Of a stretch of 47,296 nucleotides of DNA, positions 12,001 to 14,692 are shown piece by piece. Where the stretch lies: the IMG/VR virus record IMGVR_UViG_2879765931_000007. One strand, given 5' to 3'. The position numbers are program-made. The DNA is from a virus. Its lineage: Duplodnaviria; Heunggongvirae; Uroviricota; Caudoviricetes. Numbering within the stretch: position 1 is the first letter of the stretch; every line of letters begins with the position of its first letter.

Positions 12001-14692
12001 AACTCCAGGCATTACACATTGCTCGGGATGAAGAACTACCAGCTGTTACTGCCCTGGCTGTTTCCCACAAAACCAGCCTGCTCGATCCGCTGGAAATTCG
12101 CGATCTCCACAAACTGGTGCGTGATACTGACAGAGTTTTCCCTAATCCAGGCAATTCAAGCCTGGGGCTGATGACTGCTTTTTTCGAAGCATACATGGAC
12201 GCAGACTACACCGATCGCGGTCTGCTGACAAAAGAGTGGATGAAAGGAAATCGTGTTTCACGCATCACGCGCACGGCTTCCGGCGCTAATGCTGGCGGCG
12301 GGAACCTCACCGATCGCGGCGAAGGTTTCGTTCACGATCTGACGTCACTGGCGCGCGACGTAGCCACTGGCGTACTGGCTCGTTCAATGGACGTGGACAT
12401 TTATAACCTTCATCCGGCACACGCTAAACGTGTCGAGGAAATTATCGCTGAAAATAAACCGCCCTTTTCTGTTTTCCGCGACAAATTCATCACCATGCCT
12501 GGCGGGATGGATTATTCCCGCGCCATCGTGGTTGCGTCAGTGAAAGAAGCACCGATTGGTATCGAGGTCATCCCCGCTCACGTCACTGAATATCTGAACA
12601 AGGTACTGACTGAAACCGATCATGCCAACCCTGATCCGGAAATCGTGGATATTGCCTGCGGTCGCTCCTCTGCCCCGATGCCGCAACGTGTAACAGAAGA
12701 AGGAAAACAGGATGATGAAGAAAAAACGCAGCCATCTGGCGCAATGGCAGATGAACAGGCAACGGCTGAAACAATGGAACCGGATGCAACTGAACATCAT
12801 CAGAACACGCAGCCGCTGGATGCTCAGTCACAGGTAAATTCTGTTGATGAGAAATATCAGGAACTACGGGCAGAACTCCATGAAGCCCGGAAAAACATTC
12901 CGCCCAAAAATCCTGTCGATGCAGACAAATTACTGGCTGCCTTGAGGTAGCCTGTGAGGTGTACTGGCAATAGCGGACACTACCATTTGTTCTTTTTTTA
13001 AGCAGCCATCTGATGATATTTTTCCCTGAAGGCTGCCGGGGAGATATTCCCCAGACGAGAGTGACGACGCTGACGATTGTAGAAAATCTCAATGTATTCC
13101 CGTATTACTGAGGTGGCTTCATCCCGGTTATTAAAACGATAGTGGCTCAGGCTCTCATTTTTCAGCGTTCCCCAGAAGCTTTCCATCGGAGCGTTGTCGT
13201 AACAGTTACCTTTACGCGACATTGATGTTTTCAGACCAGACTGCTCCTGTATGACCCGGTAATCGTATGCGCAGTACTGTGAACCTCGATCAGAGTGGTG
13301 GATTAGCCCGGCAGGTGGGCGCTGGCTCCTGAGCGCCATAAACAGGGCTTTACCTGTCAGCTCTTTTGTCATGCGCTCTCCCATGGCGTAGCCGACAATT
13401 TCACACGTATAAACATCTTTGATGCCAGCGAGGTACAACCATCCCTCCTGTGTGGCAACATACGTCAGGTCCGCCACCCAGACCTGATTTGGTGCTGTAG
13501 GAGCGAACGTCTGGTTCAGCAGATTTGGCGCAACTGGCAGATTGTGGTTCGGGTTCGTAGTCGCTCTGAACTTGCGTTTCTGCTTACAGCGTAGCCTCAG
13601 CTCCTTACGAAGACGTGCCAGTCGGTCACGACCAACGATGATGCCATTCTCTGCCAGCTCCGTCTGGAGCCGCCGGGTTCCATATGTTTCGCGAGTGCGG
13701 ATATGTGCCACCTTAATCTCCAGTTTTAGCCGCTCATCACTTTGTTTTCTGTCTGAGGGTTCATGCTGTACCCAGTTGTAATAACCGCTCCTGGATACAC
13801 CAAATACCTGACACATCGCTTCAATGGGAAATTGTTGTCGCCATTGTTCGATTAACGCGTATTTTTCAGCGACTCCTGTGCAAAATACGCTGTTGCTTTT
13901 TTTAATATATCTCGCTCAAGGCGAGCTTCATTTAACGCCTTACGCAGTTGCAGAATTTCAGATTCCAGTTCAGCCACCGTGCGGGAACCAGGAGTACCGA
14001 GCCCTTTTCTGGCGGCGGTAACCCGTTGTCCTAAAGTGCCTTCAGGAAGAGATAATCGGGAAGCGCCTTCACTGATCGAAAGTTGATTTTCAAGAACCGT
14101 TCTGACAGCTTCGGCTTTGAACTATTTAGAGTAACGTTGGGTTTTTCTGCTCATTATTAGCTCCTTCTGATGCCATTCTATTTCAGGAAGGAGTGTCCGT
14201 TAAACTCAGGCTACCTCAGAGCGCTTATCCGATTTTTGATCGTATTGAAGAAATGGCATGGGCTCGTCACTACCAGCAGATCGTTCGTGAAGAAAAAGAA
14301 ACGGAACTGGCGGACGACCTGGAAAAAGGTCTGCCTCAGCACCTGTTTGAATCGCTCTGCATCGACCATTTGCAACGCCACGGTGCCAATAAACAGGCAA
14401 TCAGCCACGCATTTGATGATGATGTTGAGTTTCAGGAGCGCATGGCAGAACACATCCGGTACATGGCTGTGAAGTGGCACACTGAATTTGGCCACCTGAA
14501 CAGAGGTGATATGCTCACCTCAGAACAACACAGGTGCTCCAATGAAAAAAGAAATTTTAGCGCAGAGTTTAAACGCGAATCCGCTCAACTGGTTGTTGAC
14601 CAGAAATACACGGTGGCAGATGCCGCCAAAGCTATGGATGTTGGCCTTTCCACAATGACAAGATGGGTCAAACAACTGCGTGATGAGCGTCA

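Follow-up and report, generated by a model that had tools for sequence, protein, structure and literature searches.

A 12-bp IS600 relic next to a pseudogenised IS600 copy in a defective lambdoid prophage

Results

Organization of the recE-gam locus

The analysed stretch of DNA, referred to as the window, comprises all 47,296 nucleotides of the IMG/VR virus record IMGVR_UViG_2879765931_000007. The third IS600 copy of the window (copy 3, also designated as B) is surrounded by genes encoding Rha, KilR, YdaE, RecE, Gam, an AAA_24 ATPase, an excisionase and an integrase, which form part of a defective, Rac-like lambdoid prophage. The following features were determined at the locus:

11526..12950, plus strand: truncated RecE-family (exonuclease VIII) gene, 474 aa (Pfam Exonuc_VIII, RefSeq annotation)
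12943..12954, plus strand: relic of an older IS600 (A), IRL positions 1-12 (exact reverse complement of 14207-14218)
12955-14218, minus strand: IS600 copy 3 (B), full, 1264 bp, IRR tip at 12955 and IRL tip at 14218 (BLAST, copy comparison)
12998..13816, minus strand: orfB frame of copy 3, open, 272-aa ORF with the rve (DDE) catalytic domain (Pfam)
13852..14154, minus strand: orfA of copy 3, broken by GAG>TAG at codon 11, also carrying W44R (translation, copy comparison)
13897..13903, minus strand: A7 run in the orfA/orfB overlap (sequence)
14219..14469, plus strand: remnant of a lambda-Gam-family host-nuclease inhibitor gene (Pfam Gam, E = 1.2e-47; annotation)

The 474-aa ORF corresponds to the N-terminal part of RecE, and its homology to the relatives ends at 12942. 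The recE ORF is 646 aa long in the closest uninterrupted prophage and 1028-1049 aa long in the full-length relatives. The gam remnant has lost the first two bases (AT) of its ATG start codon, the homology restarting at the G, and it is cut a second time, at 14470, by IS911.

IS600 copies of the window

The BLAST comparison of 12955-14218 with the window resulted in five full 1264-bp IS600 copies and one 949-bp partial copy, with identities of 99.4-100%. Besides copy 3, they were located as follows:

490-1753, minus strand: IS600, full copy (BLAST)
2040-3303, minus strand: IS600, full copy (BLAST)
26777-27725, minus strand: IS600, partial copy, 949 bp (BLAST)
33541-34804, minus strand: IS600, full copy (BLAST)
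45597-46860, plus strand: IS600, full copy (BLAST)

The identity of copy 3 with the four other full copies of the window was 99.4-99.6%. The IS600 homologues in RefSeq E. coli records are annotated as 'IS3-like element IS600 family transposase' with the remark 'programmed frameshift'. In Pfam, orfA matched HTH_Tnp_1 (determined with the intact orfA of copy 5), and orfB matched rve, rve_2, rve_3 and HTH_21. The two genes are in the 0 and -1 frames, and the A7 run at 13897-13903 is presumably the -1 frameshift site for OrfAB, as is expected in IS3-family elements.

The terminal inverted repeats of IS600 are imperfect and of the TG...CA type, with IRL on the orfA side (TGAGGTAGCCTG...) and IRR at the other end (TGAGGTGTACTG...); 20 of their first 30 positions agree. 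Both terminal repeats of copy 3 are identical to those of the other IS600 copies. Target duplications of 3 bp were found around copy 1 (GTT), copy 2 (TAT) and copy 5 (CAG). No duplication was detected around copy 6 (AAG/GGA) or, in agreement with the initial annotation, around copy 3 (CTC/CAG).

Coding capacity of copy 3

The column-by-column comparison of the IS600 copies of the window revealed T at IS position 95 only in copy 3, and G elsewhere, so that AAA GAG of the other copies reads AAA TAG. The resulting stop codon is located at 14122-14124 on the minus strand, with the G>T substitution at window position 14124. The nonsense mutation had been recognized in the initial annotation and is indeed unique to copy 3 in the window; according to the translation, it affects codon 11 and not codon 10. 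The stop precedes the whole HTH_Tnp_1 domain and falls in the N-terminus which is common to OrfA and OrfAB; therefore, copy 3 makes neither of the two proteins, as had been suspected. Two further amino acid changes, W44R in OrfA (IS position 194), which was detected only in the window and in locus L015, and Ile>Thr in OrfB (IS position 1106), which is common to the IS911-bearing loci, are consistent with the decay of the copy.

Copy 3 resembles the IS600/IS3 family of copy-out-paste-in elements in its length of 1264 bp (~1.26 kb), the HTH_Tnp_1 orfA, the rve orfB, the A7 run and the TG...CA repeats. In contrast to other IS600 elements, it has a stop at orfA codon 11, no target duplication and a 12-bp stub of another IS600 at its side. 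Copy 3 is a member of IS600 and the IS3 family by descent, but it is non-autonomous and pseudogenised. As both terminal repeats are intact, copy 3 could be mobilised in trans by the transposase of other IS600 copies.

The 12-bp relic and the uninterrupted relatives

The 12 nucleotides at 12943-12954 (TGAGGTAGCCTG) are the exact reverse complement of the IRL tip of copy 3 at 14207-14218, and they directly touch the IRR tip of copy 3 at 12955 (TGAGGTGTACTGG...). The presence of an oppositely oriented IS600 end beside the left end of copy 3 was thus confirmed. It had been labelled as a right end, which is correct for the window-right end of copy 3, but it corresponds to IRL in the standard IS naming. 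The stop codon of the 474-aa ORF (TAG, 12948-12950) lies within the 12-mer, as previously noted. With at most one mismatch allowed, the 12-mer occurred six times in the window, at the five IRL tips of the full copies and once as a solo tip, compared with 0.19 occurrences expected from shuffled sequences. Around the 1276-bp unit composed of the 12-mer and copy 3, no 3-bp duplication was found (CCT vs GAG).

No junction of the 12-mer with IRR was detected elsewhere in the E. coli RefSeq complete genomes or in the metagenome scan. The apparent full-length matches to this junction in O121 strains were rejected as chance similarity of the flank (TGATGGGAGCTG).

All 25 E. coli matches listed to 11526-12954 stop at query base 1417, i.e. 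window position 12942, one base short of the 12-mer. The closest uninterrupted prophage was L001 from the E. coli O121 strain 201805972. At the insertion point its sequence is ...GCTGCCT|CTCGCGG (...TTACTGGCTGCCT|CTCGCGGAGAATTT...), and it rejoins the right flank of the window after 503 bp, at ...CCAGTGAT|GAGCGCTTACCCG. The comparison with related genomes, which had been proposed as a check in the initial annotation, shows by the common endpoint of the listed matches at 12942 and the CTCGCGG continuation of L001 that the 12-mer is not native to the upstream gene. The segment 3682-4184 of L001 (503 bp), comprising the 3' part of recE and the start of gam, is missing from the window. Compared with the uninterrupted state, 503 bp have therefore been lost and the 12-mer and IS600 have been gained. 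The left flank of L001 is only 96.7% identical to that of the window, hence the 503 bp are an approximate value for the loss relative to the true ancestor.

The 191-bp state

The IMG/VR scan for the left flank followed by the 12-mer resulted in five contigs. Four of these had the junction of the window; the fifth, L009, is the 12,987-bp contig IMGVR_UViG_2537561620_000012. After the same left junction, L009 continues as AGTTTAACGGACACTCC..., which represents IS600 positions 1-191 in the plus orientation, seamless from the 12-mer. Position 191 is joined without a gap to TGAGGTGTACTGGCAATAGC, the IRR tip of a minus-strand IS600 (TGAGGTGTACTGG), which is split by a 1.3-kb IS629-like element. The right junction of L009 is that of the window, CCTCA|GAGCGC (CCTCA|GAGCGCTTATCC).

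T at IS position 169 was determined in every copy at the recE-gam locus, including that of L009, and was found neither in the other IS600 copies of the window nor in the 191-bp fragment of L009. The common T169 together with the common left and right junctions indicates that L009 and the window hold the same orthologous IS copy. The junctions of the two differ solely in the remnant of A, which is 191 bp in L009 and 12 bp in the window. Both states end exactly at base 1 of IRR, and no microhomology was observed at the borders GCCTG|AGTTT and AGGAC|TGAGG. As the 12-bp state cannot yield the 191-bp state, either the 191-bp state preceded it or both were derived from a longer ancestor.

The viral-contig scan for the junction of position 191 with IRR found L009 alone, and no junction of this type was present in the E. 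coli RefSeq complete genomes. The sole E. coli complete-genome match with at least 80% coverage (H51) was rejected, as its IS600 is inserted at another site of recE and is unrelated. An exact look-up in the protein collection did not find the 66-aa chimeric ORF which is peculiar to the L009 state. The 191-bp intermediate is represented by a single contig, with assembly error as a residual possibility; it is unlikely that a misjoin would fall exactly on the IS tip.

Other states of the locus were searched for as well. No genome with a complete older copy A was found in the searches of E. coli genomes, metagenomes and viral contigs, and the metagenome scan with the left junction gave no match. 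In the viral-contig scan, neither the right junction of a complete A (IRR tip + NNN + CTCGCGGAG...) nor the presumed original left junction of B (...GTGATGAG|TGAGGTGT) was detected. A two-copy or dimer intermediate at the locus was not found in the viral-contig and E. coli complete-genome searches.

Distribution and alleles

The 12-bp junction was identical in 19 other loci, and the right junction was identical wherever the locus reached that far. The loci with the 12-bp junction included S. flexneri SFBU1023, 'E. coli' ECMA0423, ten NCBI chromosomes, four IMG/VR contigs and a second stretch (L011) of one of these contigs. All S. flexneri loci sampled had the 12-bp state, and the 12-bp junction was not detected in any E. 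coli RefSeq complete genome. A protein identical to the 474-aa truncated RecE was found on 692 contigs, its sources giving 'Shigella flexneri' as the name, and copy 3 is base-for-base the same as the copy in CP026871.1. Judging by these sequences, the window is almost certainly S. flexneri chromosome.

The alleles at IS position 95 of the copy at this locus were distributed as follows:

T (stop): window, L002, L003, L007, L010, L013, L014, L015, L016, L019, L020
G (wild type): L012, L017, L018, L021 and the copy in L009

The wild-type G was present in 4 of the 13 complete 12-bp copies of other strains, and the nonsense codon is polymorphic among strains. This polymorphism and the loss of about 503 bp of recE/gam in the same event are additions to the initial annotation.

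The loci with G are all in the group in which gam contains IS911 and position 1106 is C, yet the window and L015 are in the same group and have T. The alleles at position 307 are likewise inconsistent with the groups. In L002 and L003, a block of about 45 substitutions was found between IS positions 400 and 824. The inconsistent alleles at positions 95 and 307 and the block in L002 and L003 make it evident that copy 3 is subject to gene conversion or to recombination with other IS600 copies, which is the simplest account of the G at position 95 in some strains.

Discussion

Formation of the scar

The 12-mer is very probably the last remnant of an older IS600, copy A, which was removed by deletions anchored at the tip of B. 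According to the initial annotation, the 12-mer looked like a trace left by an earlier IS600 which had disappeared through deletion or recombination, and this interpretation is supported by the presence of A positions 1-191 at the same junction in L009 and by the relatives without the 12-mer. Beyond the alignable states, the sequence in which the events took place and the reactions by which the deletions were made are inferred. Copy A had been inserted in the plus orientation into the recE-family gene of the defective lambdoid prophage, right after ...GCTGCCT. Copy B is oriented oppositely to A, with its IRL tip at the gam start codon. Deletions whose right endpoint was always exactly the IRR tip of B would then have removed nearly all of A and about 503 bp of recE/gam. 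An early state, in which A positions 1-191 are retained, would be represented by L009, and a further 179 bp (A positions 13-191) would have been lost in S. flexneri, leaving 12 bp. The orfA nonsense codon probably arose in B later. The missing target duplication of copy 3 is expected after an IS-anchored deletion.

The deletions may have occurred by two routes, of which insertion followed by recombination is slightly favoured, the data not deciding between them. In the favoured route, a new IS600 would be inserted close to B and parallel to it, and the interval and one copy would then be deleted when the two direct repeats recombine in a RecA-type reaction. The product would be a single copy which lacks a target duplication and directly adjoins the new insertion point. 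This route was preferred since recombination among IS600 copies is visibly active at the locus. Direct IS600 pairs do form, as indicated by copies 1 and 2 of the window, which are 286 bp apart in the same orientation with their own duplications, copy 2 being missing from L010. An insertion of IS600 into an inverted IS600 on an E. coli plasmid with toxB is in favour of this route as well.

The same history may also have proceeded by one-step deletions made by the IS600 transposase, with the IRR of B, alone or in a transient tandem dimer having an active IRR-IRL junction, attacking A intramolecularly; we consider this possible but somewhat doubtful. The endpoints exactly at the IS tip without microhomology and the two endpoints (191 and 12) on the same anchor are in favour of such attacks, and deletions from IR-IR junctions of IS30 are known to start at the IR edge (PMC9333248). 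However, no trace of a dimer or junction was found, and what follows the IRR tip is IRL 1-12 as its reverse complement and not in the forward direction expected of a circle or dimer junction. Moreover, B is without its own transposase where the nonsense codon is present, though the deletion may predate the codon, as L009 has G95. The end product is the same as that of insertion and recombination and the number of steps is similar, which leaves the data neutral in this respect. A further-reaching form of the transposase reading, according to which the 191-bp and then the 12-bp endpoints were transposase attacks and IS600 in natural populations of S. flexneri preferentially erodes its own copies by intramolecular reactions at the IS end and not by host recombination, is unlikely. 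If true, such self-erosion would represent a self-limiting control of the IS load in a genome under IS expansion.

It is very improbable that copy 3 brought the 12 bp along in a 1276-bp unit from an earlier donor site within another IS600, A never having been in recE. None of the data directly support such a transfer, which would explain the solo IRL tip without a second insertion at the locus. The unit has no 3-bp duplication at its borders (CCT vs GAG), its internal junction of the 12-mer and IRR was confined to the recE-gam locus in the E. coli complete genomes and the metagenome scan, and in L009 the left junction is followed by 191 bp of A. The probability that the 12-mer is native recE sequence which resembles an IS600 end and attracted the insertion by IS3-family targeting is negligible: although IS911 integrates beside its own ends when OrfA is absent, according to the passages of PMC2909936 and PMC9333248 that cite Loot et al. 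2002, no relative among the matches listed has the 12-mer, L001 continues with CTCGCGG, L009 runs on into 191 bp of true IS600, and a 12/12 chance match is expected at about 6e-8 per site. Two other candidates were rejected. In a relic of a circle or dimer junction the 12-mer would have the other orientation (IRR-NNN-IRL), and replication slippage does not agree with the lack of microhomology at either border.

The preferred reading, in which A was reduced to 12 bp by deletions anchored at B, accounts for several features of the locus. The scar explains the end of recE at 474 codons, with the stop codon derived from IS DNA, the gam gene without a start codon, and copy 3 without a target duplication.

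Comparison with known systems

Deletions of a similar kind are said to have been described by Cooper et al. in 2001 for IS150 at rbs in the long-term E. coli experiment, with nearby insertion and recombination between direct IS copies as the accepted explanation. Similarly to the IS150 deletions, the endpoint at the recE-gam locus coincides precisely with the tip of an IS3-family element already in place, there is no target duplication, and several endpoints occur with one anchor. In contrast to them, the eaten DNA is here an inverted IS600, the variants are natural and not laboratory isolates, and a two-copy intermediate was not seen at the locus.

The deletions from IR-IR junctions of IS30 and IS911 likewise start at the IR edge, and these elements prefer interacting with their own ends (PMC9333248). 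In IR-targeting by IS30 and IS911, the incoming end is placed beside the target IR and an IRL-IRR junction results, whereas the joints determined here are 12 and 191 bp inside the target, the two IS ends point the same way, and no junction is present. A nested remnant was also found in NZ_AP028095.1, an E. coli plasmid with toxB, where the IRL tip of one IS600 is fused to an internal site (~784-790) of a second, inverted IS600. The plasmid remnant demonstrates that IS600 does insert into IS600; it differs in locus and breakpoint and has no stepwise series.

The scar represents a known kind of IS wear, and no new element or mechanism is implied. In all Shigella species five IS have expanded, IS600 among them, and the gene disruptions and deletions caused by IS are the recognised motor of genome decay in these bacteria (PMC7373316). 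A pseudogenised copy, a solo tip and an IS-anchored deletion are expected in a dead Shigella prophage. The distinction of the locus is that three states can be aligned, i.e. the uninterrupted E. coli relatives, the 191-bp stub and the 12-bp stub, by which the IS-tip-anchored erosion of one IS by another can be followed. The relevance of the findings is mainly in annotation, where copy 3 should be flagged as having no transposase of its own. As the junction showed no variation among the sampled S. flexneri loci, it could be used as a lineage marker.

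Allelic variation among the orthologues of copy 3

The nonsense codon at IS position 95 of copy 3, the IS600 abutting the 12-bp relic in recE, was absent from L012, L017, L018 and L021 (NCBI chromosomes CP026765.1, LR213452.1, CP026772.1 and UGYS01000001.1, respectively), which have the wild-type G despite sharing the same 12-bp junction. The alleles at IS position 307 were also distributed inconsistently across the lineages. For the nonsense codon, the alternatives are repair through gene conversion and origin or spread on more than one occasion. In the copy 3 orthologues of CP178302.1 (L002) and S. 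flexneri SFBU1023 (L003), approximately 45 substitutions were clustered at IS positions about 400-824, corresponding to about 10% divergence within the block, with the rest of the sequence identical. This block looks as if a divergent IS600 isoform had been the donor in a gene conversion.

The start of the Gam reading frame and the IS911 insertion

The following features of the window overlap or interrupt the Gam remnant, the lambda-Gam-family gene that lacks its own ATG:

14193-14843, mechanical ORF that opens at a GTG inside the IS600 IRL, crosses the Gam remnant and enters IS911 orfA in the same frame
14470-15717, IS911, interrupting the Gam remnant and flanked by a CTG duplication

The GTG, which lies in the orfA-side end of IS600, is preceded by AGGAAGGA. 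IS600 DNA may have donated a replacement start for Gam, since in the strains without IS911 the gene callers predicted a 106-aa Gam beginning at the same IRL GTG. Among the 13 complete comparison loci, the IS911 insertion in the Gam remnant was confined to five (L012, L015, L017, L018, L021), and E. coli L001, the closest uninterrupted prophage, carries IS911 at another site than the window.

Other IS600 copies and arrangements

The other IS600 copies of the window discussed here were:

490-1753 and 2040-3303, copies 1 and 2 in the same orientation, 286 bp apart
26777-27725, partial IS600 of 949 bp (IS positions 316-1264)
45597-46860, plus strand, the sole plus-strand copy in the window

Copies 1 and 2 each have a separate 3-bp duplication, GTT and TAT, respectively, and the related contig L010 has an empty site in place of copy 2. 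Such a direct pair is a ready substrate for recombination between the copies, leading to deletion. The partial copy is broken off directly at an IS1 end reading GGTAATGACTCC... The plus-strand copy has no target duplication (AAG vs GGA), which suggests another IS-mediated rearrangement or recombination.

Within the IS600 copy of the IMG/VR contig L009, a 1.3-kb IS629-like element was located (8776-10085, ends TGAACCGCCCCGGG...), of the same type as the element at window 16902-18207. At its joint, the expected 3-bp duplication is replaced by a loss of 11 IS600 bases (ATCTTTGATGC).

In L004 (NZ_CP027338.1, 3540-4696), an E. coli strain carries an independent IS600 insertion at a different position in a gene of the RecE family, and the nuclease domain, recT and ralR are retained downstream in this record. 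A nested IS600-in-IS600 remnant was found beside toxB on the E. coli plasmid pJNE132847_1 (L022, NZ_AP028095.1, 1803-2603), where a minus-strand piece of IS600 (positions 1264-784) meets the IRL tip of an IS600 on the plus strand, the latter itself interrupted at position 327 by IS30H. The same two-piece pattern was observed in several further E. coli plasmids and chromosomes among the matches listed.
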